A stretch of 62,906 bases of DNA, filler included, from Globobulimina sp. (GCA_003354225.1; 17 parts of 17 records of this genome joined end to end with filler, not necessarily neighbours in it), one strand, 5' to 3'. Shown: positions 11,127-48,091, numbered from the whole stretch's first letter. Program-made: numbers and translations. The notes: generated from the letters alone by a model not told the origin.

Positions 11127-14100
11127 CACAATCGACACGATTGGATGAGAAGAATAATGAGTTAGTTGAAATAAGTACAACCAATGAAGAAAATAATAAA
11201 TTGTTTGCAAGTCTGTTGGAGCAATATAAGGATGTATCAATTAAAAGAAAATCATCATTCACAGTAGAAACGGCATTAGCTGTAAATAGACGATTTAGTC
11301 TAAGATTACATGATTGTGATTTGAATAATTGTCCGCATTTATTGCGATTAAAAAAGATATTATCAAAATATAATCAGTTTGTATCTGAGCATGAATGTAA
11401 ATTATCCGATGATGAAACTGAAACTGTGACGGTTGCCGACATAGCAGATATGGATAAACATGATGCTGTCTATGAGCACCATGTCGAACCGGAGACATTT
11501 CATGAAATTGAGCATAAAAATCAAGCTGTTATCATTGAACAAGAAGTAAATGAAAATGATATCACATTTTTGATGAAGATATTTAAGGTATTTATTGCCT
11601 ATATTTGTACATTTTGTATATTTTGTATATTTTGTATATTTTGTTCAGACAATAAGAAACAACCCAAACAACAAAAAATATCAAAACTTGAATGCTGAAA
11701 AAGTGATTCTGAAATTCTCAAATCCTGAAATATGTAAACAAATATTAGTGAATGCCGGATTTAATGAACAACCAAAGGATAAACGGTTAATATTCGATCA
11801 AAGTAAGTTAGAAACATTAAAAGCAACGCATGCGAATTTGAAACAGAAATTGGATCGTTTACATTCGACAAAACATCCAGCCATTATTAGTAACTCTGAA
11901 ATAACGCCCGCCGATCATAAGAATCTACCATCAATTCGGTCAAAAATGGATGAAATCAATGCAATGCTACAAAATAATCCGAAATTTAAATCACTTCTTA
12001 TAAATCCTACCGAAGATCCATTACAGACACAAATAAATTTGAACTCAGATGACTCAGCATTGCGAGAATTGGTTGATGCGGTATCACAGCAATTATTTAA
12101 CAGTCCACGGGATAAAATTGTCAATAAAATATTGGGTCAACGAGGACTATTAACCAATGACAGCGTCATGCAACAGGTTCGTATATGGGTTTGTTTTTAC
12201 ATTTTGATGTATTTTTTTATTTGCTATGTACAGATTAGAATGAAGAGAATGAACAAGGATTTGAACTCAACGAAGGCTACGTATGCGTCGCAAATCGATA
12301 CCATATTAAAGAGAACGTCGAGAATGGATTCAAATCGCATTGACAGCGCGCACACAAATCACACAATGTTCGATGAGCCAATTAATGATACTATTGAACT
12401 GCCAGTGAATCAACATCAAAATATTGAAGATATTTATGACTATGATTATGATAATACAGATTTGTTGAATGATTTTCATCATTTACTATCAAATCATGAC
12501 AATCAATTTGAGGATATTCATAATGGATTGACTGAGCACAAAGAATGTAACGCATTAAATTGTTTTATGCTGAGAAGGAATCGTCGAAACAGAGCAAGTT
12601 CAAGCAATAATAGTCGGAGAATAAGGAAAATCTATTTTAATTTGGATGACAAATATGATTTAGTACAACAGCAATTATTGGACAAAATACATTGTCATTA
12701 TCACCATTCGTTTGATACTGGACATAGAATGAACAGAGCTGAGATCCAACGCATTAAAACTGTGCTGGACAAAGACAACGACAATGAGTTGAATGATAAA
12801 GTAATATCAGAAGTTGCTAAAATCAACCAAGAAAAGAAGAAAATATTCAATCAAAACATAGATATCAAAACATCTAAATTTTCAACCACTGTGGATGAAG
12901 AAACCATTAATTATAGTAACGGCATCAGATATTTCTATTGGAATCATTACAAAACATCGCATCTAACAACAGTGGACCGGGCATCATGGATGAATACAAT
13001 GACAGGAAAGCACGCAAACGAAGGATATTCATTAGCGGATTGGTACATTGCCCGAGCATTTAAGGTGTGTTATATTTCTAAATTTAATTCCCGCACTACG
13101 TGTACTGCGACATTAAGCATTTAAAAGAGGAGGCAATCAATAACAAAATCTACAGTCTGAATAGAGCTCAGTGGGATACATTAGTATTAAAAGCATATTC
13201 ACATTTTAATACTGCTCATTCGAAACGCATTCACTGTCAACACCCTCATTCGCAGTCACATTACGGCATAAAACAAAAAGCGCCGATTCATTTGGCACAT
13301 TTGGTCGCGATGCTGCTATATTGCAATTATGATGACTTACAACGTGCGTTCACTGAAACATACCGCAGGATTCCAGTGAATGAATCTGATGAATCATTAA
13401 AACGCAGACACGCAAATTACGGCAATTTAGGACGATTATTACGAGAATGTGTAGAGTGTTATGGAGCAAATCAAGCTTATTCTGATACGCCATGTGTGTA
13501 TCACGGGATTACTATAAAAGCAAACTTTTCGGCGTCGATTATATGTTTTAAAGGGCCAGTTAGCACTTCTACGGATTTCGTAGTCGCAGCAAAGTTTTGT
13601 GCCAATCGCGGCTTGATTTTGCATTTACATTTGGATGCATATTGGAGTGTACATGCCAATTATTTCAAAAACAAAGGAATAGCAATGTTTGATTGTGAAT
13701 GGCTCAGTGATTATCCACAGGAACGGGAGAGATTTTTTATTGGCGGATTTGCAAATTTCACCATGAGCAGTATTGTTATGGCAGCAGAGGGCGTCAATTA
13801 CGGTGCATATATTCATGCGTTGAATAAAATATTTGTTGCGATCAGGAAAGATGCTTCAAAAAATAATAAAGTTTGGGCTAAATTCGAAAGTGAATATGAA
13901 AAGGATACGATTGATGCGATATGTTTTAGATTGTTATCAGATTTGTTGCATACACATTATCCAAATAATAGCCAGTATCATAGTTTTAACTCATTGCCAG
14001 AATACGTGAGGAAATTAGTGAGATCTCACTTTGCTGTCGTTAGTAATTTGTGTTTATTTAATAAAAGATTTAGATTGAAACGAAATGATACAATTTTGGA

Positions 14101-14491
14101 AAAAATAATGAGAATGTTTTTTTGGTATGATTTTGGATGGATAAATTTGGAGAAAATGAATAAAGTGTTTCCAGCGTTGAAATATATGGAAGTTCGAGCT
14201 GAGTCATATGAGTTTGTGTTGAATGACTCGACCTATTTATCGATATTATCGCATTTGAAAAGAAAGAGAGATACAAAATTACAAAGGGTTGTTATAAAAA
14301 TTGCAAAACAAGCAAATGTGGTACAGAAAGTGAAAGATATTTGCAGTAAATTTGAAGTAAGATTTAATAGATTGATGTTTACATTGAGGGTAATCGAGTC
14401 ATCAGATGATGCAAAAATTGATATTCGATCAGAAACAACCGATTTGAAATCAAATTTTTTAAAAGTACTTGGATCACAAATTCCAAAATGA
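11127..14491 (+). CDS. Multi-exon protein: PUB-like domain + conserved helical core + ADP-ribosyltransferase-like domain (5' truncated). Introns about 11588-11648, 12177-12233, 13065-13117
   Basis: GT-AG introns join three ORFs in frame. The spliced KIFKTIRNNPNNKKYQNL...ILVNAGF is PUB-like; VYHG, STS and SDYPQERE are ART-like. Confidence 0.7.
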
Positions 14492-14834
14492 AAATGATTT
14501 ATATATTTTATTTGTAGTTTGTGTGTCAATATTGTTTCACTCTTTGTTTTTAATTATATATTTGTATTAGATTTATTATTTTATTATAAATAAAAGAATT
14601 TGTGCAACAATAAAATTGCAGTCAACACTAACAATACGTATGGTTTATTCAAAACATCCTCAGTTATTTTTCTTTTATAGTCCAAAGCACCAAAACACAT
14701 TCCATAATTTATCCAAATGATGATTATAAATCCANNNNNNNNNNNNNNNNNNNNNNNNNNNNNNNNNNNNNNNNNNNNTTAATTAATTAANNNNNNNNNN
14801 NNNNNNNNNNNNNNNNNNNNNNNNNNNNNNNNNN

Positions 14835-15050
14835 AGTCCTTTTGTAAATGTGTCCGTTTGAACTTGGAGTCCTTTTGTAAACGTGTCTGTTTGAACTTGG
14901 AGTCCCTTTGTAAACGTGTCCGTTTGAACTTGGAGTCCTTTTGTAAACGTGTCTGTTTGAACTTGGAGTCCCTTTGTAAACGTGTCCGTTTGAACTTGGA
15001 GTCCCTTTGTAGACAAAGACATGTCCGTTCGAACTTGGAGTTCCTTTGTA
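14835..15050. repeat. Tandem repeat with 30-bp unit (about 7 copies) ggagtccytttgtaaacgtgtcygtttgaactt
   Basis: Direct reading of the sequence; the ORF-track entries here are repeat translations. Confidence 0.95.
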
Positions 15051-15881
15051 AATTTTTAATCGGGAATCGAATCATTTGATCAAATCTTTGAACAGACAGA
15101 CAGACAAAAAACTCCCAAATGTATAAGTAGAAGATAAAAATAAAAAAGATATCTCAAAATATCCTAAATAAAATAAAAAGTACTACATAGTACCAACATT
15201 GTGCGTTTGTAATTCCATTATACAAGTGTCAATCTCTTTTGATTCCGTTTCTTCTAGTGCCTATAAAGAAGAAAGAACCACTGACTGCAAAAGTGTGTGC
15301 ACAGTGCATTGTATGTATTGTATACCTTGATTGAGATCCACCTAACATTTCAGTTCACTTACAGTCAATTGAATTCCACTATCAGTTTCACAGCTGGTGG
15401 GATCGCCAGTCGTAGATGAAGCCATTACCTCATCAGTCGCAACCACAATTGCCTCAGTTTCATTGCAGTTTCCAGTACTCTAAAATTAGAAAATACCAAT
15501 TGTATACCACTACTGTACGTACAAACATAAATACCTCTGATTTTGTACTGCTCCCAGTCGGCAGCTTCTCCACATTCGATGTCATACTGCCTGTATTTTA
15601 GAACCAGAAAATACACAGTAATTGCCTGAAATATAGACTAAAATATAACTTATTATAATAACAAATTGTTTGTTTGTATACAGTATACTGGAAACAACAT
15701 TAGAATATGTAACAGTATTAAACTGAATGAAATTTGAATCAAGGGTTGCAAAATTAAAATATTTATGTATACGATTAAGTATGAAAACTTGTACAGTATC
15801 AACCAGTGATGTAATGTACATTGTAACTACTGTACGAAATATGTATATAAAAATATAAAAAACTGTACAATACATGCTATT

Positions 15882-16190
15882 CAAGTCAAGTCAAGTCTTT
15901 TACTGGCATGTTATATCCCTACTTCACTATAAACTGTACAAGCAAATAACGGGAGCCAGTTACAAAAATAATACTATTACTAAACTAAACAAAAACTGTA
16001 CTATATACATAATAAAATAAAATATCACTTAATTTGAATATAAACCAAGTCGACTAACAATATTTCTAAAAGTAACAGTTTCCAAAAAACGCTCAAAACT
16101 AGTAAAAGGTAAATTAGGTACATTCGGTGGGAGATTGTTCCATATTCTGGCTGCCGAATAGAAAAATGTAGCGCCAGTGGTGACCGTGCT
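15882..16190 (-). mobile_element. 5'-truncated non-LTR retrotransposon (CR1/L2-like) 3' end
   Basis: Minus-strand peptide FFYSAARIWNNLPPNV...SFERFL resembles the LINE ORF2 C-terminus; (GACTT)3 3' tail; flanking TGCTATT at 15875-15881 and 16191-16197. Confidence 0.75.
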
Positions 16191-16461
16191 TGCTATTATA
16201 AGATAACATATAGAAAATAAATTGTCGCGCATTTGTATGAAAACTTGTGCCAATTGGTCACATCGATATATTTACTGCTGGACACCCGCACAAATTTTCC
16301 ATGCTGCAACTACAACATTTTCTTAGCAAACCTGACTACATACATGCAGTACAACAATGTACTAGAGAAAAATTGGGGTTTCACATCATATACAAAGTAT
16401 GTACAATTAATTAAAATTACAATTACAAATTAAAACTACATAATTGTCTGTCTGTACAGTA

Positions 16462-17596
16462 TTAATCGGAATCAGAACTCAGGAGATAATTTGACACTGT
16501 TAATACATCAGGTGCATCTTTTTTACACCACTCTGGAGCATCAGTGGAACGATCATAATAATCCCACAACAGTTCGGTATCCTTGGGAATATGAGTTGCT
16601 GCATGGAAACAAATAAATGGAAATCCCTTTGACGAATAAGCCAAAGATGGTGTTACATTTCTGCGTTTTATCGAATGATTCATCAAAGACATCATATTTT
16701 GAGGGTCAGAAAAGTCCATTTTAGTTGGATCTAAACAGAGCTCCAATTTTCCATGTTTGGATTTTGTTCCAAAGTATTTCGAAATATATTCATTTAGAGG
16801 GGTCGTTGGTTGAACTGCATTAAACTGCAGCAGATAGCATCCAGCTTCCTCTTCTGCATAACGAATGTTCCGTTTGTCAGCAACTTTTTTGGTAATTAGA
16901 TCACCAGGATATGCACCTGTAATATTAGACAGTGTTAAACGGCCTACAGGTACGGAAACGCTAAAGTACGCCTTTTGCACACTATTTTGGGTTAAATTTG
17001 AACTACAAATGCAATTTTTCATTTTTGACTTTCCGAATAAACGCGGGGGCATGTTTTGGTTATAAACTGAGTCTGCAGAAAATGTTAAAACCAAACAAAC
17101 ACGCCAACCACGGCTATGATTGATATGTACATACCGACAAATGTATATTGTTTCAGTGCTTCAGTTGTAGTAAATACACCGCGTCCCTTCTTTTCATCAA
17201 CAATCTTAACAGTTAGACATTCTTGGAGTGAAAATCCTTGTCCGGGATTTAGTGACGAAATCACTGACACCTTTTGTTCATTTTGTTGGCATTTAAATTT
17301 CGATGCAGGAACTCTTGTACTTCGGCGTGGATCATTTTTGCTGTCTCTGCAAGAGGACATACATACTGTACATACATTCTACATACCTTCGTAAACTACG
17401 GTAGAAAAACGATTGCTCTGTAGGATGGACTTCTATAAAGGCGCATAAATGTCCTGACTGTATATACAGAAAAATGCACCTTGTACCTGTTGTTGTATCC
17501 AATTTTACTCACTCTTTCTTCTCGGTTGTTCTCTTCCGAATCAGAATCGGATTCGTTTTCATATTGTCCCCAATTAACTGCCGGTGGCCAAAACAT
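16462..17596 (-). CDS. SET-domain lysine methyltransferase, SETD8/PR-Set7-like, multi-exon (one intron 16917-17134)
   Basis: KGRGVF...YPGDLI...GCY...CLDPT...MNHS...ELLWDYYDRS parallels SETD8 KGRGV...YHGDLI...GCY...CVDAT...INHS...ELLYDYGDRS. Confidence 0.8.
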
Positions 17597-17740
17597 GGAC
17601 AAAAATAAACTTGTAGACGGCTAAATTATACCAAAAAGGTAAATCGGAAAAACGGCCTTATTATATTAAAAAGGTTGTTTTTTCGATGATTGTCTTTTCA
17701 TTTTTGGGCCGGGCGCCGTGCGCGAATTGTATAAAAAATA

Positions 17741-17965: not shown

Positions 17966-18014
17966 GAATTTTTCACTAATTTGTCATATGTCCTACCGTA
18001 ACCTTCCTAATTTT

Positions 18015-18743: not shown

Positions 18744-18809
18744 AACACAAAAAGCACTACGGAAATATGATACGTTTCTGTATATTCCGCACGCATAAAT
18801 TGTGTTATT

Positions 18810-19601: not shown

Positions 19602-21902
19602 TTAGGTAGTAACTCTTGTCTCTCTATGCAACTGCCGCAACATATGATGAATAGGTCTTTGTTTATCCTGTAATTGTTTAATATTTTCATTGTTCATCGG
19701 CTTAAAACATCCACAATATATAACATGAGCTAATGCAGTTTGTGATAATGAAGTATCAATGTGATCCATTGCTAAATCTTCCAACGCCGCGGACATTCGT
19801 GGCATCCATTGACCAAAACGTTTTTGCATTTTAATATCATTTTGTATCACTTTTGCTAAACCATAACAAGTATTCAACTTTAAATCCACAATTTTATCCT
19901 CAAATTTGCGAGTAACCTCTTTATCATCCTGCGCATCAAAATAGTTTTTTGTGGATTGCGTAATTATCATACACAAAACATAAATTATCTGCGAATCTAA
20001 AAATAAATCTCGTATATTATCACTGGACACCATGGCAACATTATCCTTTTCCTGTTTTACTTTCCCTGTCTTTCCCTCCTTCTCTTCATCAATGCCAATC
20101 ACATCAAATATATCATTGACAGCACTCACAAAATAAATTAAATCATTCAGTTGTCGCAAGTTTTTATTTTTATTTTTGTTGCATGGAAAGTGACATTTTA
20201 TAAAATTTTCACTCATTCTCTCCTTGATGCCCTTGATGGATAAATCATATTTATGTTTATTGTTCGCTTTAAGCTCTCCAATGATGGCATCAAATCTATT
20301 CATATTTCCATTATATTTAATTTTGCATAATTTGCCCAATGCGCACATTGCGCCAATCACAAATCTCTTTTTTGAGAAACTTTCAAATAAATATTTCAAC
20401 ACAATTTCGCGATCATATTCATCCTCATCCAGCACATTGCTTTTGTCCTCCATACTTTTGTCCTCCTCCTCATCCATATCCATATCCTCCTTATTATGAA
20501 TATTGTAGCCGCCCAACATACGAATATTCTGTTTAATAATTCTCTGCGTTTTTTTATATTCATCGAGTTGTTTGGCTTCATCTCGTTTCTGTTTTAATTT
20601 CCTTTCTTTCATCGTCAATTTCTTTGTTTGTATGTTATTTTCTGTGTTTTTAAACATAGGGTCATATTGGCTCACTTTCCATTTTTCTTTGGATGGGATG
20701 TTAAAACTGGATAACAACGAAAATATTTGCAAATGTAACTCATCACTCACATGATATGTGGTGTTTTTATTTAAATTATTTATTCTTTCTATTAATTTGA
20801 ATATGTTTCTCCATGCTTTATGTATACAAAACTTCCTATTTCCGATCATATTTTCAGATAATAAACTGCTGAAAGAACAGATCAATTTACATAATAAACT
20901 ATCAATATTTTTATAATAATATTTCTCACCAATTTCAGCATTCATATCAATGCATATTTTATCCAATATATTTAACAATATTTTAAAGCTTTCAGTGCTT
21001 TGAAACTTTGTATTTAATAAATATTTTGAGGACAATTTAGTGTTCGCACAGATTATGTTTATAAAACACAGCGATAACTCTCTTATTTGAATGCAAGAAT
21101 GTTTCAAACATTTACAAATCAGCAACCAACCATTCATTTCATTGAATTTCATCTTATTGGATTCGTTGCGTTGCATCAGATTTAAAATACAGCTCAAACC
21201 ATTAATATATGTCAATAACGCAATATCATTCAATTTGGATTCTTTTTTTCTAATTAATGTCAATTCAAACAATCGTTCATCATTTAATATGTTTAAAATC
21301 GTTGAAATAAATGGAAATTGTTTAGACTCAAAGGTAATTTTACTATTTTGATTGACTAAATTTGCAATTAATTGTATGGCACAACAGCGCAACTTTAAAT
21401 TTTCATATTTTAACGCGTTTTTACTGTCTGACAATATATGGGATAATAATAATAATGTGTTGTATTGCGAGCCATTTATATATAATGGATCTAAGGCAAT
21501 TAATGTTTGCTTATTGTCATACCATTCGGCATCCCGATATACATTCGGTCGATGTGCAATAATGGACAATGTCTTACATGCTGCCGTCTGGATTGCTTTT
21601 GTGTGACCGATGGTCGGTGATAATAGTTTGCATAATGTTGAATACATTCCGAGTGTACGCAATGCACGGACATAAGTGCCCAATTCTTTATTTTTGCCAT
21701 TTTTCTTAAATGTATTTCCTAGTCTCGCCCATTTTTTTACTTCGTTTATTAAGGATGAATAGGCTTCTCCTGTTTTTATTATTTCTTTGATTACAAATGT
21801 CTCAACATATTCGTGTGGATTCTCTAGCGTTGTTTGTATCGATTTGACGGCTCTGGCGTATGCATGTTCTTGTTGTATTATACCGTCATCTTGAGCCGCC
21901 AT
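19602..21902 (-). CDS. Armadillo/HEAT-like helical repeat protein, 766 aa
   Basis: Intact long ORF with ARM-like segments (AIQLIANLVNQN, CILNLMQRNESNKMKFNEMNGWLLICKCL). Confidence 0.65.
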   Translation of the reverse strand: MAAQDDGIIQQEHAYARAVKSIQTTLENPHEYVETFVIKEIIKTGEAYSSLINEVKKWARLGNTFKKNGKNKELGTYVRALRTLGMYSTLCKLLSPTIGHTKAIQTAACKTLSIIAHRPNVYRDAEWYDNKQTLIALDPLYINGSQYNTLLLLSHILSDSKNALKYENLKLRCCAIQLIANLVNQNSKITFESKQFPFISTILNILNDERLFELTLIRKKESKLNDIALLTYINGLSCILNLMQRNESNKMKFNEMNGWLLICKCLKHSCIQIRELSLCFINIICANTKLSSKYLLNTKFQSTESFKILLNILDKICIDMNAEIGEKYYYKNIDSLLCKLICSFSSLLSENMIGNRKFCIHKAWRNIFKLIERINNLNKNTTYHVSDELHLQIFSLLSSFNIPSKEKWKVSQYDPMFKNTENNIQTKKLTMKERKLKQKRDEAKQLDEYKKTQRIIKQNIRMLGGYNIHNKEDMDMDEEEDKSMEDKSNVLDEDEYDREIVLKYLFESFSKKRFVIGAMCALGKLCKIKYNGNMNRFDAIIGELKANNKHKYDLSIKGIKERMSENFIKCHFPCNKNKNKNLRQLNDLIYFVSAVNDIFDVIGIDEEKEGKTGKVKQEKDNVAMVSSDNIRDLFLDSQIIYVLCMIITQSTKNYFDAQDDKEVTRKFEDKIVDLKLNTCYGLAKVIQNDIKMQKRFGQWMPRMSAALEDLAMDHIDTSLSQTALAHVIYCGCFKPMNNENIKQLQDKQRPIHHMLRQLHRETRVTT

Positions 21903-22250
21903 GACAAAACAAAAAAGTTTTTTAAAAAAATAAAATAAAAATTAACACATTTAATAATAATAAACAAAAAATTAATAAAAAACACATAAAAAATTTTTAT
22001 TATTATTTTATTACTTTATTTTTTGAATTTTTACTTTTCTTTTCTTACTTTTAATATGTATCAATCAATAGAGATAATTGATTTTTTTATATAATGTATT
22101 ACTAATATTAATTATGTATACAATATAATAAATTATAATTAATCTTTTCTNNNNNNNNNNNNNNNNNNNNNNNNNNNNNNNNNNNNNNNNNNNNTTAATT
22201 AATTAANNNNNNNNNNNNNNNNNNNNNNNNNNNNNNNNNNNNNNNNNNNN

Positions 22251-30382: not shown

Positions 30383-30559
30383 ATCCTATTGGTTTCCGTT
30401 TCACCACTGTGAATTTCATTGTATAGTGTGTGTTTGTTCCAATGTTATGTTCGTTGGATTTAATGATTATTGTTTGTGAGATTTGTGTATATAAACAGTT
30501 CGCCCGTTAGACTAGTTTGCATTAATTCATATTTCCAGTGGACGAGCTTATTTTGAACA

Positions 30560-32812
30560 ATGTCAACTAAAGCAGATAATTGTTCATGTGGCAAGTGTAA
30601 ATTCGTCAACGTTAGAAATCATTGTATAACAAATTGTTGTGAACATGTTCAGTTAGTTTATGTCTCCAATGGTAAATATTTCAAGATGAATAAACATACA
30701 TTAGAATATACTCACAAATACATTAATATCGATAATTCCAAAATAAGTAAACAATGTATCAATATTGACGAAGAATTAAATATAGCATATATCTGGAATA
30801 TAAAATTTGAACCGTTGCAACAGAATTTCGTACTAAAATTTAAAAACAACAACGCCGAAGCAACAGAAAAGAAACTAAAACACACAGAAGAGTCGTATCT
30901 AAAGAAGAAAGTGGATGATTTGTTATCTTTTATTCTCAATCATTGCCATGCACAACAATATGACATGGATAGTGTTTCTCTATTATTACAGCATAAAATC
31001 CAGCAAATATTCAAATATCACATTGAAGAGAACCCAGCGATCACCGATGAAAAAACTGTAATAACATCCTCCAAATCGAAATTATTTTTTGTAATCGCAT
31101 TAGATTTATGCTATGAAAATATCATAAAAGCCAACAAATACGACATAAATTATAGTTTAGCTCGATTGGATAAAATAATTCTATATAGAATCAATTATTT
31201 TACTGTGACGCGAACGTTTTTTGGCCAGACACTCGAAATAAATCCGAGTACAAATAATTTCAATCAATTGGCGTGGACTGAGATATATTTTGATAAACGA
31301 TGCGAAAATTTGCTATCGATGCCTCTTGAAAATGATAACATGCCATTTATATTTCGATACATTGTCGATGATATGAAGCAAATATTAGGTGATAAGCAGT
31401 GCAGTTATGACATTGAGCAGCAATTGAATATAAAACGTCTATTGATTGAAAACAGAAATAAAATGTTAACATTGGCCACTAATTATAACAGAAACAGCAA
31501 CGCTTTGTATCTACTTAACAATATCGACAAATGTACTGCAAAAAAGCAAACAAAGCCAAGAAAAATCAAAATCAAAATGCAAAATACATCATCGAGTTGG
31601 ATAAAATGCCCATCTTCGAATTCTCACTCATCAGACAACAATTATAACGATGAAAAAACAGAAATAACTGAAATAATACAGAGTTATTACAACGATAATC
31701 GGTCATTGATTCCATGGATGAATAAGATAAATCACATAAATATAAATACTGTAAATTCAACGCATTCTTTCAATAAAACTGTACCTATTTACAATCAGAT
31801 CACCGGTGGTAAATGTTATGAAATTGAATCGAGAGCAAAAACATCGCAAATCCATACAACTTCATATTTTTCATCGTATTTAAATTATGTTAAGAACATA
31901 TTTTATTTGAACTCAGCGTCCATTTACGAGAATATATTCATATATTTAGATGGTCAAAGTATACTAAATGGACTTATGTGTACTTGCAAAAAATTGCATT
32001 ATTTTAAATTTATGGATGAATCCAAAATATGGCATATGTTGTTACAGCGCGATTTCCCCAAATTGTATAAGAGAAAGTTTATGTATTTGTACATTCCGTA
32101 TGTTAATATTCGATATGCTTCGTTTGATGCCACCATTTTGCAGCGAGCGAAGGAGAAACAATTATATTTCAATAAAATTAGAAGCGATAAATTCTGGATG
32201 TTACTATTTAATTTACGCGATATCAATTTAGAGGTAATGGAAAATGATGAAATTGAATGTTTATGGAAACAGATTGAATGGAAAGATTTATTGGTTGGTA
32301 AGAACAATGATTATGGGTTTGGAGCATATAGGAAATTGACAAAATTGCGATTTGATCGATATATTATGTCATTTGGCGAGGATACATTGCCGACGAATGA
32401 GGTGATTGACAATTTTTGTAACGCGATTCGTAAAAACATGCGATCTGGAAAAGCCACCATTTATTTAAATCCATGGATTTCGAAGAAAAGATTGGTTCAA
32501 TGGACGCGAAGACGCATTTTATGGCTAAGTCAATATAAGCAATGTTGGGCTGTATCGGCATCGAATGAATATTTTGCGGAGGAAATGAAAAAAATACCGC
32601 AAATTATTCAGTTGATTGGAAAAATACAATTTCAAAATGGCAGACGGTTCAAACCACGGCCTGGCTGGGTACCTTTTCTACAGACATTTGATCCGACTGT
32701 TTCTACGTATAAGGACGTCAAAGATGGCTGGTTCCAAAAACAGTTTCTCTTGAATGAGATGGAAAATCGATTGAAAAATATGCGAAGTTTGATTCAAATT
32801 GTCAGGCAATGA
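30560..32812 (+). CDS. 750-aa protein with an internal F-box-like motif
   Basis: Intact ORF; SIYENIFIYLDGQSILNGLMCTCKK...IWHMLLQRDFP is F-box-like. Confidence 0.6.
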   Translation: MSTKADNCSCGKCKFVNVRNHCITNCCEHVQLVYVSNGKYFKMNKHTLEYTHKYINIDNSKISKQCINIDEELNIAYIWNIKFEPLQQNFVLKFKNNNAEATEKKLKHTEESYLKKKVDDLLSFILNHCHAQQYDMDSVSLLLQHKIQQIFKYHIEENPAITDEKTVITSSKSKLFFVIALDLCYENIIKANKYDINYSLARLDKIILYRINYFTVTRTFFGQTLEINPSTNNFNQLAWTEIYFDKRCENLLSMPLENDNMPFIFRYIVDDMKQILGDKQCSYDIEQQLNIKRLLIENRNKMLTLATNYNRNSNALYLLNNIDKCTAKKQTKPRKIKIKMQNTSSSWIKCPSSNSHSSDNNYNDEKTEITEIIQSYYNDNRSLIPWMNKINHININTVNSTHSFNKTVPIYNQITGGKCYEIESRAKTSQIHTTSYFSSYLNYVKNIFYLNSASIYENIFIYLDGQSILNGLMCTCKKLHYFKFMDESKIWHMLLQRDFPKLYKRKFMYLYIPYVNIRYASFDATILQRAKEKQLYFNKIRSDKFWMLLFNLRDINLEVMENDEIECLWKQIEWKDLLVGKNNDYGFGAYRKLTKLRFDRYIMSFGEDTLPTNEVIDNFCNAIRKNMRSGKATIYLNPWISKKRLVQWTRRRILWLSQYKQCWAVSASNEYFAEEMKKIPQIIQLIGKIQFQNGRRFKPRPGWVPFLQTFDPTVSTYKDVKDGWFQKQFLLNEMENRLKNMRSLIQIVRQ

Positions 32813-35274: not shown

Positions 35275-36977
35275 ATGGCACAAAAACTTACTTTAAGCAT
35301 ATCCGTAACAAAAGGAAGAGACGATAAATACATCCATATCCACTTGATCTCATTTGCCACGTGGAATGTACGCCGTTCCTTTCTTGAATTGGATGAATTA
35401 CACACATTATTATCCCAAACAAACCGTGGTATTTTTTTACCAGCCTTACCCAATGCATCCAGGTCGACCTCCGCAGAATATCAAGAATATTTATCCAAAG
35501 TCATATGTCGTACATTCTGGGTGCATTTAGAAGCGGTCCTCACTTTCATCCAAGCTCCGTTAGAATTTCGTCGTGCAGTAAGCGCACAATATACAAACGA
35601 GAAAAGCACCGTAATTAAATGCGGCAAACTAAAAAAAGAAGGGCAAAAAAACAAATCCTATCATAAGAGATATTTTGTAGTATTGTCAAATTATTTAATC
35701 ACATATTTTGACTCCAAACAAGCCTTTAATTTATACACAGAAAGTAAAAACAATAAACCTCCCAAAGGACATATTGACTTATTATTAGTCAAAAAGTTGA
35801 TAACCCCACAAAATACAAACAAAAAATATGCGTTCCACCTATCAACACCTACTCGTTTATGGAAACTGCAATGCAAATCCCAATCGGAACAAAATGAGTG
35901 GGTACAATTCTTAGCCAATTATTTATCCTCAAAAAAGTATCAAGCCTTTATAGCGCCGCATCGACCCAATCAGACCGAGGTAAAATGCAACAATGAACCC
36001 GAAGACATTCAAGAATTATTTTTGAGCAAAAATACCAAACACTCAGATCCAGTGAATCGCATTGCACATATTCTATTATATCACTATCAATTAACCAAAG
36101 CAATGGATTATAAGAAAGGGGACGAATTATATGTGCATAACACCAATGATGATGAAAAAAGTGTCACTGTCACGCAATTGGAAGCAAATCAGATTTTATA
36201 TAACTATATAAATCAGCAATTGTATCCATATAATAACGTGAGATTATTGAACGATTATTTTCTTTTAATACTGAACCATTCCGGCGATGAATTTAATATG
36301 TTATATGGCAGAATGACCAACAAAATTGGGACTTTTTGTGACATTCAGTTATGTTCTAGTTTTGAGAGGATTGAAAAAGATGCAATTAATAATATCAATA
36401 CGTATTATAATTATTTAAATTCATCGCATAAAGAATTGGATATATTGCATTTATGTGACATGATACATTGTTATTTTTTGCATGGTTACGATGTTGGAAT
36501 GAAGCTCTCCGACAAAGAATTGAGTGAAATAGAAAATTGTATCTCTGAAAGCAAGCAGGATGACAATGTGACTAATCGGACAGAGATATTTAATATGCAA
36601 TTTGATATGATTAAGCAGCTACTTTTGAGCAAAAGGAAAGAGTTCCAGACACGTTTGAATTTTGCCAGTACACATTATGGGTCTCATCAGGTGAATAAAT
36701 TCATAACACACTGCATTGAAACGGAGACAAAGGCCGATAACTTATCCACTTCGTTTGGTTACAAATATTTCTATTGGAACAGTTACAGACATAATGACGA
36801 AGACGACTTGAAGTATAATATTGGACATAAGATCAATGATTTTTATATTGTGCCCAAGCACAAAGATATTAAATCTGAGATTTTTGGCAATGGTCAACAT
36901 TTAAATAATATTTTTTGTATTGGGCAGAAGAAATGGGATTATTTGCTGCGACGCGCCTTATTATTATTGCGCTGTGT
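35275..36977 (+). CDS. PX-like + PH domain protein with the conserved core shared with 11127..14491 (3' truncated)
   Basis: WNVRRSFLELDELHTLL...LPALP (PX-like); KCGKLKKEG...KRYFVV...PKGHIDL...EQNEWVQFL (PH); DMIHCYFLHGYD and FGYKYFYW core motifs. Confidence 0.75.
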
Positions 36978-37077: not shown

Positions 37078-40000
37078 AAATAATTTGATAAATTGAAATG
37101 TTGTTTACAATTAAAACAATTATAAATTTGATTACAAATACAGCCATCAACGGATGTATTCAACACTAACAATGCATTGATAATGTCAGAGTGTACTGTG
37201 TCATTACAATACAGTAAGATATGATAACTATTATTATCAATGTATGAATTGGTGAAATCATTCAAATAGTATTTGATGAAAAAGCCATCCGAGGGCCAAA
37301 TAGTTGTCATAGTTTGCGTAAAATTGATTGAAATTAAATTTGTTATTCCATAATGAATATTGGCTGTCTTTTCCATTCCATTTATATAGAATAATAACAA
37401 AACATTATCATCAAATATAGCTAATTCAGACCGTCTATAATGTGCAATATCTGTTGGTATATCAATCCCCATTTTATTTGTCTCAAACCGTTCTGTTTTG
37501 GTATCGAATATTATCGTATTCCATGAGGATGCATCAGATCCATGAATATAAATTTTATTATTTGATGCCATTACCGACCGCGTATAAACCTCATTATTGC
37601 ACATACGCAGTGTATTTATTTTTATAGCCTCATTATTACGAATATCATATTTGTATAAATCACATGAATATTTATCACAATTACCTTGCGAATCACATGC
37701 GTATGAATCTAAAATATATATATTATAATTCAGAATGGCGCAGTTAATGATTTCTGTCCATTCCCATCCAATGCTAAGACTGCTTCCTGTCCATGCTGTT
37801 GGTCCTTGAATATTGGACCATTCCTCATTCGCCAATGAAAAAATCAACATATTTGTTGGAGTAATAATATAAACATAATCGCCATTAGATACCATACATT
37901 TATCTTCAATGTATTGCAAACCAACCGTAAATGATGATTTTTGTGGAATTTCGTAAGATTTAGAGGTAGGTTTCACTTTATCCAAATTAATATGTGTCAA
38001 CATGTCACCAGCCGCTGTCCACGTATACAGAAACAAAGAAGATCGATATTGTGCGTATCTTTGTGATTTCATAATAATATGTTCCTTAACTTCATGTTGG
38101 TCCATTTCTAAAACTCCACCGCCTTTAACATCATACAGTTCATGATTCCAATTCCATTCATATCCATGCAGTCCGTGCAAATCCTCGAATAGCGGCAACG
38201 TCAAGTTAGTAAAATGTACTTTGCGGAGACCAAATACAAATAATGTCCAATTCCAAAAGGCGATCGGCGGTCTAAACGGCCTCGTTCCAAATTGCTCGTA
38301 ATCATTATTTGCCGGATAATACGCAGTGACATCACATTCTTCTTCGTGAGAATCAAAGCTCGTATCGTAATATTCGAGGATAATGTCTTCATTCAATAAG
38401 GAATTGTTCACAAACTCTATATTCTTCCAACAATTCAATGTCGCATTGCAATGTTCATAGATTCCATATGCATTACAAAGAAAGCCATCCACTGCGCGGT
38501 CGACAGAATCTTGTAGAATGGCAATGTGTGCCGCACTTTGACAAACTGCGCCATTTGTCTTAAGCCAAAGATACGCAGCAACGGCACCGGTAACATTCAT
38601 GGATAATATTGTTTGACTGTTAATGTCGTCGCAAGAACACAATGCAGGGCAAGATAGCAGATTTTCGTGATACGGAGATTCGTCATTGACACAATAACCT
38701 GTTCCGTTCTGGTCGCAAAGAGTGCCATCAATCCATTGCCAATTTACATTTTTATACATTCCGATCCACACTTCGTCCAAACTAAGATAATTATTCCAAT
38801 GTGCAGACATTGTGGAAGCGTTCATGATTCGAATGGCGTCAAAGATGTCTTGTTGTGATAAAATAGTGGCCAAACTTGTGCCATATTCGGTTTCACAGTG
38901 CAATTCCGACTGAATCCAGTTCATTCCGACGCTGCCCGGTGTCAATATATATTTATCCACACTTGATTTGTAAATACAATACAAAGCGATATTAAACCAA
39001 TCGTCAATGGCAAAACTGCCATGTCCAATAAACTCCAATCTGATCAAATACTGTCCAGCATCTAATGCATTTATTACTACATTGGACATTGCAGTGATTG
39101 TCAATTTGTGCGATTGCAATTCGTACAAAACATTAAAATCATTATCGTAGAGACGAAATGAAAATATATACCGTATAAACAAAGAAACGAAATTAAATGT
39201 AATATAATAAATGCTTTGAGGCAACATGAGTTTGTAATATTTAATATCGCCAATTGATACAGCATACCCATTGTATCGAGTGTTGCATTGTATGCTGCCA
39301 ACAATATTTGGTGCTGAGCGGACGCAGATATTTTGTACTGAGCCATTTATGGCATTATCAATATTCCACGGATCGCTAATATATAACGGATAGGATGGAT
39401 GCCAAATGGTTGAGGTACTGTTTTCCTTTGCATTCGAATTCATTTCTTCCAATTCTACAATGAAATAATTGTCGATTTGTGACTGTAAGGGGTTGATCAC
39501 AAAATAATATGCCACACTGTCAACGGCAAATATTTTTTCTTTGGGTTTTAATGACAGATAAATATGATGAAATTCATCAGTTGAAAGATCAAGGATTGCG
39601 TCGGCATTCGGCACATAAATCTCAAGCCAATGCGTGTTGTCTCTCAATGAAATATTGAAATAGTTTCCGTTGCCGTTGATTGATAGTGATGGATAACTAA
39701 TAGATGTTGAATTGCCTAAATGTAATATGTTACATAACGAGTGATTACACTGTTCATTTATTTTTATGTCAAATTCTATTTCAATTTGATCATCGATGAT
39801 TGTAATCCATTCGAGGATGCTTTGCGATGGCACTATCATATGATTTCCAGCTACGTAGTAATCACAATTTGGAAGAAAAACAATTTTTAATTGGTAACTA
39901 CCGGCTGTTGTATTATTATTATATGGCTCAATTTTGAGATAATACGTTCCTTTATTTAATGAAATGGTAAAATTAATAAAACAGCCACTGAGATTGGGTG

Positions 40001-40277
40001 CGTCTGGCACCGCGATAATATTTCCTACGCCATCTAAAATGCGTAATTGTGTGTTAATATAAATATTACTGTGACAATCTTCGAAATGCACTTCATATGA
40101 ACTATTAATGATCAGTTGATGATAATGAGTTTGGTTATATGTTGAATTCATAAATATATCTGATATAATTTCATTGTGGGATATATTGCTCCGGATTTGT
40201 GGTGCAAACGTTCCGCAGTTTATGCATCTGATTGCAAATGCATACCACAAAATGATTAACAACTTAAGTTGCGCCAT
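37078..40277 (-). CDS. Large secreted/surface protein with a C-type lectin-like domain and beta-rich/propeller-like regions (3' truncated)
   Basis: Signal peptide; MNWIQSELHCETEYGTSLATI...VWIGM...WQWIDGT is CTL-like; LNKGTYYLKI is a PPC-like beta motif. Confidence 0.7.
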
Positions 40278-40391
40278 GTACACTATCGGCAAAGAACCAT
40301 GGTTTTTTTATGCATACAGTACCTCAAATCGACGCAAAAACTTTAATAATCCATTTGTAACAGTAAGTGTAAGACTGTGTCTGTGAGCAAC

Positions 40392-40683: not shown

Positions 40684-40783
40684 NNNNNNNNNNNNNNNNN
40701 NNNNNNNNNNNNNNNNNNNNNNNNNNNTTAATTAATTAANNNNNNNNNNNNNNNNNNNNNNNNNNNNNNNNNNNNNNNNNNNN

Positions 40784-41560: not shown

Positions 41561-41702
41561 TCTTGAAGGAGTGAGTCACACAAAAACATCTAATGCCATG
41601 TTTTACTGATATAATCGCTTGAAACAAACAGGACTCGAAACAACAACATACAGATTGAAAAAATAAAACAGATATCGATTTTGAAAAACGTTCGTTTTTA
41701 GA

Positions 41703-42380: not shown

Positions 42381-42896
42381 ATTCGAGTCGACTGTCAATT
42401 CTTTTTAAGTTTAAAAAGAGTGTAGACACTTTCTAAGAGATTTTCATTCTGTGGGTCAGCAACATGTTGAACATGTTGTGAAGAGCAACTACAGGAGAGT
42501 GATTTACCGAGAACTAGCTGCAATTGATTATGGATTTTGGTTATTTTTCTTTGTTATTTCGGAAATGTGATCATTATTTCAATAAAAATGTAGTTTTCTG
42601 TCAATATTTTTTTACTAAGCTTATATTTTTTAGTTTATCATTTCACATAAAATTCATCTTATTGTTATAGATATTTCAAAATCCACCAAAATATTCAAAA
42701 GTTTATTATACTCACTAAAATACTGGAAATGTTGTTATGAACATTTGAAAATAAATATTAATTAATGCAAAAAACTTATTTATGAATTATGAACTATTTA
42801 TCCATAATTATCAACTATTTATGCATAATTATCCATAAATATTCGATAAAACAAACATCAAAATCAAAATACACCTGAAAAATTGTGACACGACAA

Positions 42897-44387
42897 ATGG
42901 AAATGATTAATTTTGTAACAGCCTTTACATTAATTATTGGTTTGAGCATAGCGTATTTTTTGTATCAACACAGAGCCAAACCAAATAAAACTATCCCATT
43001 ATCAAAAAACATGCATTACCTGCCATATTTTGGACATTTTTTCTCTTTATTAAAAATGTCAAAGATACCTGACGTAGTTGATTCTTATGTGGAAAAAGAC
43101 AACATACAAAACATCAAAGTCGACCAGGTGTCACGTTCTTTTTTACCGAACTATATTCTCTTAAGAGATCCTGATTTAATAAAATTCTGTTTTGAGGATC
43201 AATTCCATGCTTTCGAGAAATCAGAAATGGTCTCGCAAATTGCAAAAGAAATTTTGGGGAAAGGAATATTTGCGTCAGATGGTGCTCAATGGAGATTACA
43301 CAGGAAAATATCTGCGCGATTGTTTACAATGAAAAATTTGAATGGTTACATGTTTGAATGTGCATACAAAGGATCAAAAACATTCCTGTCAAAATTGGAA
43401 CAACTTAGACTTGCAAAAGGAAATGAAGAACACATAGTGGATATTTATGATATGTTCGCCAGATACACATTGGATATATTTGTTGCAATGGCGTTTGGTC
43501 ATCGTTTGAAAAATATTGAATCTGCTCCCAAAAAACACTTATTTGGAGCAGCATTCGATTCGAGTTTGAATATTTTGTTCAAAAGGGGAGCGAATCCATT
43601 TTGGAAAATAATGAAATTTTTGAATATCGGATTTGAAAAACAAGTGAAAAAAGATTTGCAAATTGTTGATAAATATATTTACAGATTGATTGAAAATAAC
43701 TCATTGACGGGAAACTTAAATGATGCAAATGGTGATAAACATAATTTAATATCATTGTTCATCAAACATGAACCACAAGTTTCAAAGCGTGAACTAAGAG
43801 ATGTTGCTATGAATTTTATTGTGGCTGGCCGCGATACTACGAGACTTTTGTTATCTTGGTTTGTTTACGATTTAACCAAACATCCTGAAGTCGAAGCAAA
43901 GATTTTAACTGAAATTAACAATTTTTATGCAAAGAATGATGGTTTAACTTATCAGAATATTCAGAATCATTATGGTGATAAGAGCAGACCGTCACACTGG
44001 CAATATTTGGAAGCTGCGTTGTGTGAAACTTTGAGATTGCATCCTCCCGTTCAGCTTTTAGTCCGGTTTGCGAAAAAAGATGTGAATTTACCTGGAAAAG
44101 AAGGGTATGTGATTAAGAAAGGTGAAGGTGTTGCTATTCGTGCATATGTTAATTCGCGATTAAAACGCATTTGGGGAGAGGATGCTCTTCAATTTAAACC
44201 CAGTCGATTTTTGGCAAAAGGAGTTAATACATATCCACCGCATATATTCCCTATATTTAATGTGAAACCAAGGTATTGTTTGGGAAAACATATTGCAATG
44301 ATGGAAGCAAAGATTGTTGCAATCGAATTTTTGAGAAAATATCAATTTACAAAAACAAAAGACTCAAAAGTTACTACACTTCTTGGT
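42897..44387 (+). CDS. Cytochrome P450 (CYP86/CYP704-like features), 3' truncated
   Basis: N-terminal TM; GKGIFASDGAQWRLHRK; AGRDTT I-helix; ETLRLHPPV; KPSRF; heme motif FNVKPRYCLG. Confidence 0.95.
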
Positions 44388-44487
44388 NNNNNNNNNNNNN
44401 NNNNNNNNNNNNNNNNNNNNNNNNNNNNNNNTTAATTAATTAANNNNNNNNNNNNNNNNNNNNNNNNNNNNNNNNNNNNNNNNNNNN

Positions 44488-46244
44488 TTACATAAAGAAT
44501 CTAATTTATTACAATCAAATGCAGCATCTATCAAAGTATATAATTTATCGTATACATTCCGACGATCTGACATAAATTCTGTTTGTATTTGATTGGGAAT
44601 AAACTGCATAAAAAAATCCCAATCACTCTTTAATAAATCTAAGAAAATATTAACATGTGAAACATCAGGAAATTGTGTCTGAGAAACCTGTAATATTCGT
44701 TTTATTCCATTTGTTATTTGTATGAATTGATTTGATTTAAAATCAATATTATTATACTGTCTATATACAGATAATAAATGACATAAACAACCAAACACCG
44801 TCAACATACATCCATATATATCATGGCCAACAGTCTTGTTTTTATTTTTAGATCTTCTAAAACTAAAATAATCACTATCGCGTTTCCTCACATGCTGAAC
44901 ATGAACGTGATTCAATTCAACACACAATTTTTGTTGAGGATTCATAGCATCTTTAAATTTGCCTAAAAATGTAATCAATGGGTTTGAATCATTAATATTT
45001 CTTGATGGAAATTCAATAATTTGTGCGACAGTAAATACGTAATCGCTATCGGTTGTATCATGTATATCACTCACTTGTGTTTGGTCTGGATCTCTAATAA
45101 TAACATCATTGCCGGGTGATAATAATTTATAGATCCATTCTTTGCTGTATTTAACATCAATTAAAGCACTGATTTTATTTATAAACTGAGGAATAACATT
45201 TTTAATTATACCATCATGAACCGAAGGTGCACAATGCATCCATTTACCAGCTAAATTCAACGCACTTGTGATCCAGGATAAATCTTTGATATTTTTGGTC
45301 CATTGTCTTTCTAAAATACAAATAATTCTATCAATAATATGTGATTTATGTACTCGAATAGAAAGATAAGGTTTACGTGGTTTTACTGGTTTACGTCGTA
45401 AGAATGAAATATAAGGTTGAACATTAAAATATAAATTGTTAATAATAGTTACAATATGCGGAATAACCTCGTGTTGGGTGAAAGTGTCTTGTGTATCAAA
45501 TATGCCATCAATAAAAATTGATAAATTTTCAATTATATTTACATTCACAATGCATAAGCGAAGGGATGTGATTTCTGAAAGAGCTTTAAATAAAAACAAA
45601 ATATTTGCAATAAACTTGATGTGATGGTTAATAATATGTTGATTTAATAATAAATTGGAGAATGTTGGCAATATTCCAGATGTTGCAATATGTTGTAATG
45701 TGCCGTATCGCCCCCGATTTTCATTTTTTATCCATAAACATAATAATTCCGATTCATGCGTTACTTTTAATAAATCATTATTGTTTTCATTGTTAATATC
45801 AATGTCTATTATTTCAGATATTTTATGTATAAAATGATACACTTTATTTAATGGAAATGGTAATATTTGTGAATGTGGATAAGATTTTTTAAATTGTGCT
45901 GCTACACAAAACACTCTACACATTGTTGACAGCATTCCCTTTTCATATTGCGTTAAAAATACAAATATCGACGCTAAACAATTGCTATTCAAACTGTTCA
46001 AATTTATTTCGCCATTTACATTGATTTCTTTTTTGATTTCATTTTGTTTTGGTTTTTTTAATATTTTTAATAATTCTTTTTGTTGAATATATGATAAATT
46101 ATTTTTATTTTTCAACATAATTTTAATCATATTTCTGGAACCACCAAATGATTCAATGATTTCTTCTTCTTTTGATTGGTATTCCAAATCTTCCATTTTA
46201 TCTAAAATTGAATGATTTGTCAACCACAAAGATTGCAAATCCAT
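44488..46244 (-). CDS. F-box-like + helical (ARM-like) repeat protein (3' truncated)
   Basis: LNSLNSNCLASIFVFLTQYEKGMLSTMCRVF is F-box-like; helical Leu/Ile-rich segments follow. Confidence 0.55.
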
Positions 46245-46339
46245 TGGTAAACTATATAGGTCGAGATTATGCGGGAATATTTTTTGTGCTCTGAGAAAAT
46301 GCGTTTTCGTTTAGTTTAAAAAACTTGGACTCTAAAAAC

Positions 46340-48091
46340 ATGGCAAATCCAGATATTACAGATAGAGCAGATAGAGATGAATATGAGGTGGAGATTATTG
46401 ACAGACCAATAGGTGTACGGTTAATCCATACGGATAAAATTATAGTTGGTCAAGTGTTAGAAAATGGTGTAGGCTCAAAATTAGGTATTAAAAAAGGTGA
46501 TATATTGATTGAAATAAATGGAACCTCGATTATTGAGTTAGAAAATGACAAAGCAATTGAATTATTCGATGAAGCCAACTTACCATTCCTTGCAAAATTT
46601 AGCAAAGCAATATATATACAAAAACATGATGATAATAAGAAACATATTGAAGATAAACAGGGAACCAACTTGTATAATTTAGCAGAATGGAATGTAATAA
46701 ATGTATTGATGTGGTTCATTGAATACTGCAGCAATAAATTCGATGATGACACAAAATTGAAGAAATATCAAGCAATAATATGGAAAAATAGAATTGATGG
46801 CTCAAAATTGAAAACATTGACACAAACTGATTTATATAATATAGGCATTAATGATAAAAATGATTGTTATGCAATATACATGGAAGTATGTAATAAGTTA
46901 GGCATTGAAAATGACATTAAACCACTTTCAGACGATATCATCGATGATATTAAAGAAGAGAAACAAGAACCAAATGGAATATTAGATATTTTTGGATCCG
47001 ATAAATATGATTATAGTGATTGTGGGCGATTTATAGACATTGCACAATGTTTAGCATTACAAAGAATATGTTATGTATTGGGTCAATATGTTAAATGGAT
47101 AAATGAATGCATTGAAACACAGAAATTATTAAAATATAAAGAAAATCTATTTAAAGACGAGACATTAATGATTGATATTACATCGTATGAAGCAATTGAC
47201 AGTATAATGAATAATATAAATTATAATATTGTACTATTACTAAATGATTTTAATTATATTAAATTAAATTATTTGGACGCAACAAGCCATAAAATTAATA
47301 ATGGCCTAACCAGCGCAAGTAGCGACTTTAGGCGTCGATTAATTGATTTTTATACAATCCATAATCCAACAAAACTGTCAGACGTGGAAGGTATTGATGA
47401 AGTGTTACGGAGATATGCTGGAAGAGAGGACAAATTATTTTCAGATCTGAATCGAAAATATAATGTATGTGCAAAGAATAAAATTAATTCAAATCGAAAT
47501 TATCATATTATGCATAAAATATTTTGTAAGAATGTAGAACCGATTAAAAAAGATTGTAACTTTATATTAAGACGAAATTTTAGGGACAGATTATATTTTC
47601 AAGATAATAATATTATGAAAGAATGGTATTTTAGTATTAATGCAGAAAGCATAATGACACAAGAAATATTTGACAAAATATATTGTTTTTTTATGCATTC
47701 ATACGAGAACGGATTAATATTAACAGAGAAAGAAGAAAATATTATAAATACAAAAGACGAAAAAGATGAGCAGGAAGAAGATGAAATAAATTGGTATAAA
47801 TCAGATGCATTGTTACGGATTGGTTGCATTATCGAGGAAAAAAGAAAGAATTTATGTTTGTTATTGAATAAAATGAATTTATCGAAACGGAGATATAAGA
47901 AAAAAAATAATCGTTTTTTAACAAATTATGAGAATCAATACAGTGTTGGACATAAATATTATTATTTGGATTATCATCGTAAAAATGAGAAAATGGATTT
48001 TCATAATGTGGGATATCGATATTGTGATTGGTTTGTTGCAGCAAAATATGAATCATTAAAAGCTGAGTTAATGTTTAATAATATATCACAA
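46340..48091 (+). CDS. PDZ + SAM domain protein with the conserved core shared with 11127..14491 (3' truncated)
   Basis: RPIGVRL...GIKKGDILIEINGTSI (PDZ); EWNVINVLMW...NRIDGSKLKTLTQTDLYNIGI (SAM); DKIYCFFMHSYE and YSVGHKYYY core motifs. Confidence 0.8.

Follow-up and report, generated by a model that had tools for sequence, protein, structure and literature searches.

Three paralogous genes of Globobulimina sp. and a candidate family of multidomain eukaryotic ADP-ribosyltransferases

What is encoded by three genes that share a core without annotation and differ in the signaling modules attached to it? The question is raised by a 62,906-base stretch of DNA from Globobulimina sp. (GCA_003354225.1), here called the window, in which contig 4 (11127-14734), contig 10 (33372-36977), and contig 13 (44488-48091) each carry one such gene. 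Based largely on predicted structures, we consider it fairly probable that the three genes belong to a very large, unannotated eukaryotic family of multidomain mono-ADP-ribosyltransferases (mono-ARTs), which are probably cytosolic. The conserved body of these proteins would have three parts: a domain of helices that carries Cys/His motifs, an ART domain belonging to the R-S-E clade (the cholera toxin- and ecto-ART-like enzymes), and a C-terminal alpha/beta domain.

A core shared by three genes

The six sequence motifs named in a preliminary description of this DNA occur in identical order in all three genes (regular-expression scan of contigs 4, 10, and 13; Table 1). Composition-adjusted pairwise BLASTP aligns the proteins significantly, at E values of 5e-12 (contig 4 vs contig 10), 5e-9 (contig 4 vs contig 13), and 3e-8 (contig 10 vs contig 13). 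This similarity is far beyond chance, and the genes are real paralogs, as had been proposed, with a common core that lies outside all Pfam models. The truncated copies also find independent database matches, contig 10 to P0060 at 1.6e-19 and contig 13 to P0001 at 8e-17, and their cores match those of ART-bearing database proteins at 1e-19 to 1e-14. When a hidden Markov model (HMM) of our alignment A1 was compared with the 626 six-frame open reading frame (ORF) pieces of at least 40 residues from the whole window, the only matches at E <= 10 were four pieces of the three genes, placing family members on 3 of the 17 contigs; the model includes the window's own sequences and is thus informative for negatives only.

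The core opens with a CxLxxCxxLxR....L..Y helix upstream of LLNDF, followed by LL-N-D-x-H-H-x4-H, a second C-x-L-x2-C, 'RNxRxR', and LL-D-x2-H-x4-H-x2-D-x-G, and closes with KFxT, YSxGxRYFYW, NxGY...DWY, and LKxE. Basic positions are conserved as well (R210, R213, and 'RNxRxR'). Eight Cys/His positions are conserved, with counts between 101/127 and 126/137 among the sequences that span the respective column, and the two C-x4-C ... D-x2-H-x4-H motif sets that they form probably represent two putative zinc sites, of which the contig 4 gene has all eight candidate ligands. The two units align in register, which suggests an internal duplication; the HMM-to-HMM alignment (hhalign) is weak, with a global E value of 0.18 and a local one of 4.4e-4 over 14 columns. 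The contig 13 protein differs from all other members by an in-frame insertion of ~70 residues (47252-47540), which lies after LLNDF and before the second Cys motif.

The contig 4 gene has three exons (Table 1). No stop codon interrupts the frame as far back as the contig's first base, and the gene is consequently 5'-truncated, a point missed in the preliminary description. The first conserved core element, CDLNNCPHLLRLKKILSKY, lies in exon 1 at 11315-11371, and when it is aligned with hmmalign, the two Cys fall on family columns C103 and C108. The second splice junction is borne out by P0018 (68% identical), in which ...EWYIPRAFQNLKEELLNN... is continuous across the junction. Most of intron 1 (11588-11648) consists of three tandem copies of a 9-nucleotide TATATTTTG-like unit.

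The other two genes are single ORFs with start codons at 35275 and 46340, and both are cut by the end of their contig, the contig 10 gene ~30 residues after IKSE and the contig 13 gene eight residues after LKAE. Each ORF extends beyond LK.E into an N..I/C...W..L...A segment, whose equivalent in the contig 4 gene lies in the exon that contains the ART domain.

Fold and active site of the ART domain

In the copy with a complete 3' end, on contig 4, the core leads into a domain with the ART fold, as the preliminary description had anticipated and as AlphaFold2 (AF2) and Foldseek now indicate. The AF2 model of exon 3 (ma27837f54620, from an 89-sequence alignment) has a predicted local distance difference test (pLDDT) score of 92.0 and a predicted template modeling (pTM) score of 0.89, and by its Foldseek matches it has the ART fold, which is defined by a split beta-sheet NAD-binding core with N-terminal helices. 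Its top Foldseek match in PDB is ART2.2 (1og4), with an E value of 2e-4, a probability of 1.00, and a TM score of 0.54 on the target over 222/223 columns. The next matches are ExoS, XopAI, ExoT, Tre1, Certhrax, HopU1, and C3bot1, all ARTs of the R-S-E clade, and the group from ExoS to C3bot1 has E values of 1.5e-3 to 4.8e-2 and probabilities of 0.89-1.00. Among viral models (BFVD), giant-virus ARTs match best, namely proteins with ART domains from Cedratvirus (5.8e-4) and Solivirus; phage ADP-ribosylases are found as well. ART2.2 is also on top when the model of a full-length relative, P0008, is searched.

P0008 (833 residues; 91 aligned sequences) is modeled at a pLDDT of 87.9 and a pTM of 0.89, with disorder in its N-terminal MYND region only; the prediction is therefore of a single compact unit made up of the core, the ART domain, and the C-terminal domain. 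The earlier idea of a core that forms a unit of its own from LLNDF onward does not survive, as the core starts further upstream and would be part of one fold with the domains that follow. The C-terminal alpha/beta domain (13850-14470) is probably the source of weak Foldseek matches to S-adenosylmethionine-dependent methyltransferase-like structures (E 3e-3 to 5e-2, TM score ~0.15-0.25).

These models bear on a different reading of the three contigs, in which their likeness is confined to a non-catalytic helical or zinc module that is only sometimes fused to an ART, and the genes on contigs 10 and 13 end without one. This would accord with an ART being visible in one of the three genes, and with the only close relative found for the contig 13 gene being a fragment without the core. 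A database search with the core of P0008 by itself (residues 100-400) returned two proteins and is too insensitive to exclude cores that lack an ART. However, the truncated ORFs run into the segment that contig 4 has in its ART-containing exon, and in the P0008 model the core and the ART pack into a single compact unit. The database proteins matched by the cores of the two truncated genes also all carry an ART directly downstream, with the bias that they were first found by an ART query. We regard a stand-alone helical module as very improbable.

Three conserved motifs mark the predicted active site (Table 1; residue numbers from T81 to E204 are those of exon 3 of the contig 4 gene, and conservation was counted in up to 156 database proteins from a library of representatives at 50% identity, aligned to the family HMM). 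Motif I has His in 131/155 proteins, Arg in nine, Tyr in four, Gln in three, and Cys and Thr in two each, followed by a Gly kept in 154/156. Motif II begins 20 residues after the His and has Ser in 154/156, then Thr in 134/156 and either Thr or Ser in 155/156, as in the R-S-E clade. Motif III keeps both Glu in 155/156, in agreement with the [QE]-x-E of that clade. Their order and placement in the model are those of motifs I-III of R-S-E ARTs, for which a passage of PMC12522546 gives the scheme RxD/HxT, STS, Ex[EQD]. The presence of Arg at the His position in nine of 155 proteins supports the positional equivalence of this residue with the Arg of the clade. The site thus reads as a His-Ser-Glu(xGlu) variant of R-S-E with the signature [YF]-H-G, S-T-[ST], E-x-E. 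Ahead of beta1, near-invariant T81-x-R83, R97-H98, and L108-R109-E110 lie in helices.

The substituted motif I raises the possibility that the family has lost the catalytic Arg of its clade and with it the activity, and that the ART fold serves as a binding or scaffold module in a pseudoenzyme or a sensor of NAD+ or ADP-ribose. Catalytic loss usually erodes the Glu first. Here 154-155 of 156 proteins retain S-T-S and the two Glu of E-x-E, the pattern that selection on an active site should produce, and Arg returns at the His position in nine of 155; both observations argue against a pseudoenzyme. In its favor are the 131/155 proteins with His instead of Arg, the 11 more with Tyr, Gln, Cys, or Thr, and the failure of any ART profile to recognize the domain. 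Divergent-site pseudo-ART families do exist in eukaryotes, LRRC9 being an example given in part of PMC7955679. On balance a loss of catalysis appears distinctly unlikely, and an active mono-ART remains the reading that we prefer.

Table 1. Window positions of the motifs, exons, introns, and predicted domains of the three genes.
Feature	Position	Strand	Content or basis
LLND[FY]	contig 4: 12462; contig 10: 36244; contig 13: 47237	+	regular-expression scan
D.I[HY]C...H..[DE].G	contig 4: 12681; contig 10: 36457; contig 13: 47672	+	regular-expression scan
[KR]F.T	contig 4: 12876; contig 10: 36697; contig 13: 47912	+	regular-expression scan
[YT]S.G..Y[FY]Y	contig 4: 12912; contig 10: 36748; contig 13: 47939	+	regular-expression scan
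N.G[YH]...D[WF][YF]	contig 4: 13017; contig 10: 36817; contig 13: 48005	+	regular-expression scan
[LI]K.E	contig 4: 13121; contig 10: 36868; contig 13: 48056	+	regular-expression scan
Contig 4 gene, exon 1	11129..11587	+	ORF list, DNA, motif position; frame open to contig start
Contig 4 gene, intron 1	11588..11648	+	61 nucleotides, GT..AG; splice resolves frame shift between ORF pieces
Contig 4 gene, exon 2	11649..13064	+	PUB-like ~11652-11882, linker, core LLNDF (12462) to DWYIARAFK (13064)
Contig 4 gene, intron 2	13065..13117	+	53 nucleotides, GT..AG
Contig 4 gene, exon 3	13118..14491	+	core end LKEE at 13121, ART-fold, C-terminal alpha/beta domain; TGA stop 14489-14491
Contig 4 gene, predicted ART-fold domain	~13280-13850	+	AF2 and Foldseek
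Contig 4 gene, predicted C-terminal alpha/beta domain	~13850-14470	+	AF2 model
Motif I, Y128-H129-G130	13499..13507	+	predicted strand beta1 (127-131)
Motif II, S149-T150-S151	13562..13570	+	predicted strand beta2 (148-151), helix after
Motif III, E202-R-E204 (E-x-E)	13721..13729	+	opens predicted strand 204-207
Contig 10 gene	35275..36977	+	PX-like ~35275-35590, PH 35611-35913, core LLNDY (36244) to contig end
Contig 13 gene	46340..48091	+	PDZ 46433-46576, SAM-like ~46670-46900, core LLNDF (47237) to contig end

Family size, accessory domains, and genomic setting

The suspicion that the family is large proved correct. A phmmer search with exon 3 of the contig 4 gene (457 residues) against 1.84 billion representatives clustered at 50% identity returned 2742 clusters at E <= 1e-3, of which 1688 reach E <= 1e-10 and 195 reach E <= 1e-30. 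A word-indexed database search yielded 17 long proteins of 833-1356 residues, mostly from EukProt. One of the relatives, P0019 (1309 residues), is matched by the exon 3 query in two separate stretches, one at the very N-terminus, which suggests two ART modules in tandem. Pfam (2025 copy) has no family over the core or the C-terminal half in the pieces from the window or in 134 relatives, and gives none in 21 members when the threshold is relaxed to E <= 10. A single-protein scan of genome contigs for prokaryotic relatives, which reaches close relatives only, gave 32 pattern matches, none of them confirmed. The full-text literature that we searched, which did not include the main ART review, where an earlier mention is possible, contains no description of the family. 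ESM Atlas gave no usable match with exon 3. With the P0008 core (residues 100-420), its nearest entries are rotifer 'hypothetical protein' clusters at a score of 0.86, below the 0.9 reliability line; one rotifer cluster has Pfam ART on 10% of its members at a score of 0.83, again under 0.9, and is a lead only.

The relatives carry varied accessory domains, as the preliminary description had supposed. The 134 that were scanned with Pfam (17 at E <= 0.01 and 117 at E <= 1e-4) are those ranked highest for the PUB copy on contig 4; tallied at E <= 1e-4, PITH is found in 33 and PUB in 17, and seven further types occur: UBA and PH in three each, and PPPDE (C97), zf-MYND, a RanBP-type zinc finger (P0066), an N-terminal AZUL (P0116), and a C-terminal TLDc (P0067) in one each. 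PUB binds p97, UBA and the RanBP-type zinc finger (NZF) bind ubiquitin, and AZUL is a module of the ubiquitin-proteasome system. The PITH domain is the C-terminal domain of TXNL1 according to a passage of PMC13531033, and TXNL1 binds the 19S particle of the proteasome via Rpn2, Rpn10, and Rpn11, as stated in part of PMC12700798. By sequence, nearly every recognized partner domain belongs to the ubiquitin-proteasome-p97 system, even in a biased tally.

The signaling modules that the preliminary description had assigned to the three genes stand in part. The PUB-like region of contig 4 scores below the Pfam cut-off (PF09409, E 0.054, 13.9 bits vs a gathering threshold of 34.3), and its identity is supported transitively: residues 3-78 of exon 2 match residues 159-234 of P0041 at 9.4e-7, where Pfam calls PUB at 145-216 (3e-9, 37.1 bits). 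Neither is the module N-terminal, as had been thought. The CxLxxCxxLxR....L..Y helix of the core lies upstream of it, and PUB is therefore inserted in the first loop of the core, with the true N-terminus off the contig. P0078 has the same layout, with CxLxxC at 337, PUB at 359-428, and LLNDF at 448.

In the contig 10 gene, PH (PF00169) passes the Pfam cut-off at 1.2e-16 and 61.5 bits, but PX (PF00787) remains just under it (5.7e-4, 20.8 bits vs 21.6) and covers profile positions 7-43 of 84 only. The contig 13 gene likewise has an accepted PDZ (PF00595, 6.4e-7, 30.1 bits vs 23.2) but a sub-threshold SAM (PF00536, 9.4e-3, 16.7 bits vs 23). PX, PDZ, and SAM were not seen in any of the 134 scanned relatives, and the architectures on contigs 10 and 13 are therefore minority forms. 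A joint profile of these two genes found one relative, a 339-residue fragment that is 51% identical to the PDZ-SAM part and ends before LLNDF.

If the proteins are active mono-ARTs, the ART domain would bind NAD+ and move ADP-ribose onto a protein side chain. E-x-E motifs in ARTs are associated with arginine as acceptor, and by analogy with other E-x-E ARTs the acceptor here may be arginine. Substrates would be reached by way of the swappable adaptors. PITH would dock the enzyme at the 19S proteasome, PUB at p97, and UBA and the RanBP-type zinc finger on ubiquitin; PH and PX would place it on phosphoinositide membranes, and PDZ and SAM on scaffolds. The spectrum of adaptors suggests that substrates lie at the proteasome, at p97, or on ubiquitin.

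The same proteins could act on something other than protein, either by marking DNA, RNA, or a small molecule or by functioning mainly as NAD+ glycohydrolases, as an expanded system of conflict or immunity in which NAD+ is depleted or DNA or RNA is labeled. Large, domain-shuffled families are typical of conflict systems, and this family is very large with shuffled domains; nucleic acid would be bound by the helical domain, through its Cys/His motifs and a basic patch of conserved residues (R210, R213, 'RNxRxR'). ARTs that ADP-ribosylate nucleic acids in a non-canonical way are described in part of PMC8883491. However, the recognized accessory domains are protein- and lipid-binding adaptors of the ubiquitin-proteasome system and of membranes, rather than nucleic acid-binding or sensor domains, and the Pfam scans showed neither a secretion signal nor repeats of an immune type. 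The defense role proposed in the preliminary description draws no support from any analysis here, and we give a non-protein acceptor or NAD+ depletion only a small chance.

Several observations weigh against the assignment of the three genes to a family of mono-ARTs. An ART domain is seen in only one of the three genes of the window, and there the Arg that defines motif I of the R-S-E clade is a His, as it is in 131 of 155 relatives. Pfam recognizes none of its ART families in the pieces from the window (E <= 1) or in 21 members (E <= 10), and PDB sequence searches with exons 3 and 2 and a family-profile search gave nothing meaningful. The Foldseek statistics are modest: the best match of the exon 3 model, at E 2e-4, has a root-mean-square deviation of 5.4 A and 15% identity, and full-length P0008 reaches ART2.2 at E 9.7e-3, with 0 PDB matches at E <= 0.001. 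The putative zinc sites are not uniformly kept, since contig 10 has an intact site 2 and Ser and Leu at two positions of site 1, and contig 13 has lost several candidate ligands (Tyr at two positions of site 1 and one of site 2, and C-x9-C). Finally, the accessory-domain tally is biased toward the subfamily of the PUB copy, and 80 of the 134 relatives, many of them fragments, have no Pfam domain at E <= 1e-4.

The window joins 17 contigs of 3603-3609 nucleotides in order from longest to shortest, with each junction formed by N44, a 12-nucleotide AT-only linker, and N44 (e.g., 3610-3709 and 11027-11126), and its GC content of ~27-45% across 2-kb windows is that of an AT-rich eukaryote. By Pfam, the remaining contigs encode ordinary eukaryotic proteins, namely a kinesin motor, Sec23/24, a cytochrome P450, a protein kinase, an XPG/MKT1-like nuclease, SET, a SAM-methyltransferase, a pseudouridine synthase, a TPR protein, and a xanthine/uracil permease. 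Many long ORFs of the window have no Pfam match. The largest unannotated one, at 37080-40307 (-), is an unbroken ORF of 1076 residues, rich in Cys, Asn, and aromatic residues, without a match at E <= 1e-5. Five others of 607-779 residues are without a Pfam family at the same threshold: 8736-11024 (+), 19605-21941 (-), 30557-32809 (+), 1649-3609 (+), and 44490-46310 (-). The last of these is antiparallel to the PDZ-SAM gene, and the ORFs 44436..46310 (-) and 46295..48139 (+) share ~16 nucleotides.

Relation to known ADP-ribosyltransferases

Among described enzymes, the vertebrate ecto-ARTs (ART2.2, PDB: 1gxy/1og3/1og4; Pfam ART PF01129) provide the best fold match, which extends over almost all of the ART2.2 chain, N-terminal helices included. 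S-T-S and E-x-E lie on equivalent elements, motifs I and II are ~20 residues apart, and mutants of E189 are named in ART2.2 PDB titles; the R-S-E residues of ART2.2 are R126/S147/E189. The ecto-ARTs differ from the family in lacking detectable sequence or profile similarity to it and in having Arg where it has His. Moreover, the ART domain of the family sits between the Cys/His helical and alpha/beta domains and is fused to cytosolic adaptors, and no signal or glycosylphosphatidylinositol (GPI) features appeared in the scans.

Bacterial toxins and effectors of the R-S-E clade (ExoS/ExoT, C3bot1, HopU1, XopAI, Tre1, and Certhrax) share the fold clade, as judged by Foldseek, and the motif scheme. 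In contrast, the present family is eukaryotic, with introns in its genes, and its architecture is not that of a secreted toxin.

PARP motifs contain H-G-[ST], and the 'H-G' of motif I in the family resembles it. The PARP/ARTD enzymes of the H-Y-E clade are also similar in being eukaryotic and in combining a conserved catalytic domain with many alternative targeting domains. However, motif II of the family is S-T-S and not the Tyr of the H-Y-E clade, Pfam gives no PARP match, and no PARP occurs among the 50 Foldseek matches listed for the exon 3 model, the top of which are R-S-E ARTs.

A further comparison is with Legionella SidE, whose mono-ART, of the R-S-ExE type, ADP-ribosylates Arg42 of ubiquitin as described in a passage of PMC10951314. 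The likeness is offered as an analogy only: the family shares the E-x-E motif, and its fusions are mostly to modules that bind the proteasome, p97, or ubiquitin, whereas SidE joins its ART to a phosphodiesterase, none of which was seen in the family here. It is conceivable, though rather unlikely, that the family represents an endogenous eukaryotic counterpart of SidE, in which His-Ser-Glu E-x-E ARTs docked via PITH, PUB, UBA, NZF, or AZUL onto the 19S proteasome, p97, and ubiquitin chains would ADP-ribosylate ubiquitin or core parts of the degradation machinery, with the PX-PH and PDZ-SAM paralogs acting at membranes and scaffolds. If this analogy is correct, these proteins would add a layer of ADP-ribose to ubiquitin-proteasome regulation in these protists.

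The fold and chemistry of the candidate mono-ARTs are those of a known superfamily; what appears to be new is a family beyond the reach of Pfam and PDB profiles, with accessory domains of its own, a variant motif I, and a fusion preference that has not been described. Within eukaryotic cells, most ADP-ribosylation is credited to PARPs and sirtuins, and ARTs of the R-S-E type are familiar mainly as toxins of bacteria and ecto-enzymes of vertebrates. The family would be an intracellular lineage of R-S-E-fold ARTs with thousands of divergent members that domain libraries have missed. Its fusion preference leads to the testable hypothesis of cross-talk between ADP-ribosylation and protein degradation, and a profile seeded with the alignments could provide annotation for many 'hypothetical proteins' from the genomes of protists and from metagenomes.

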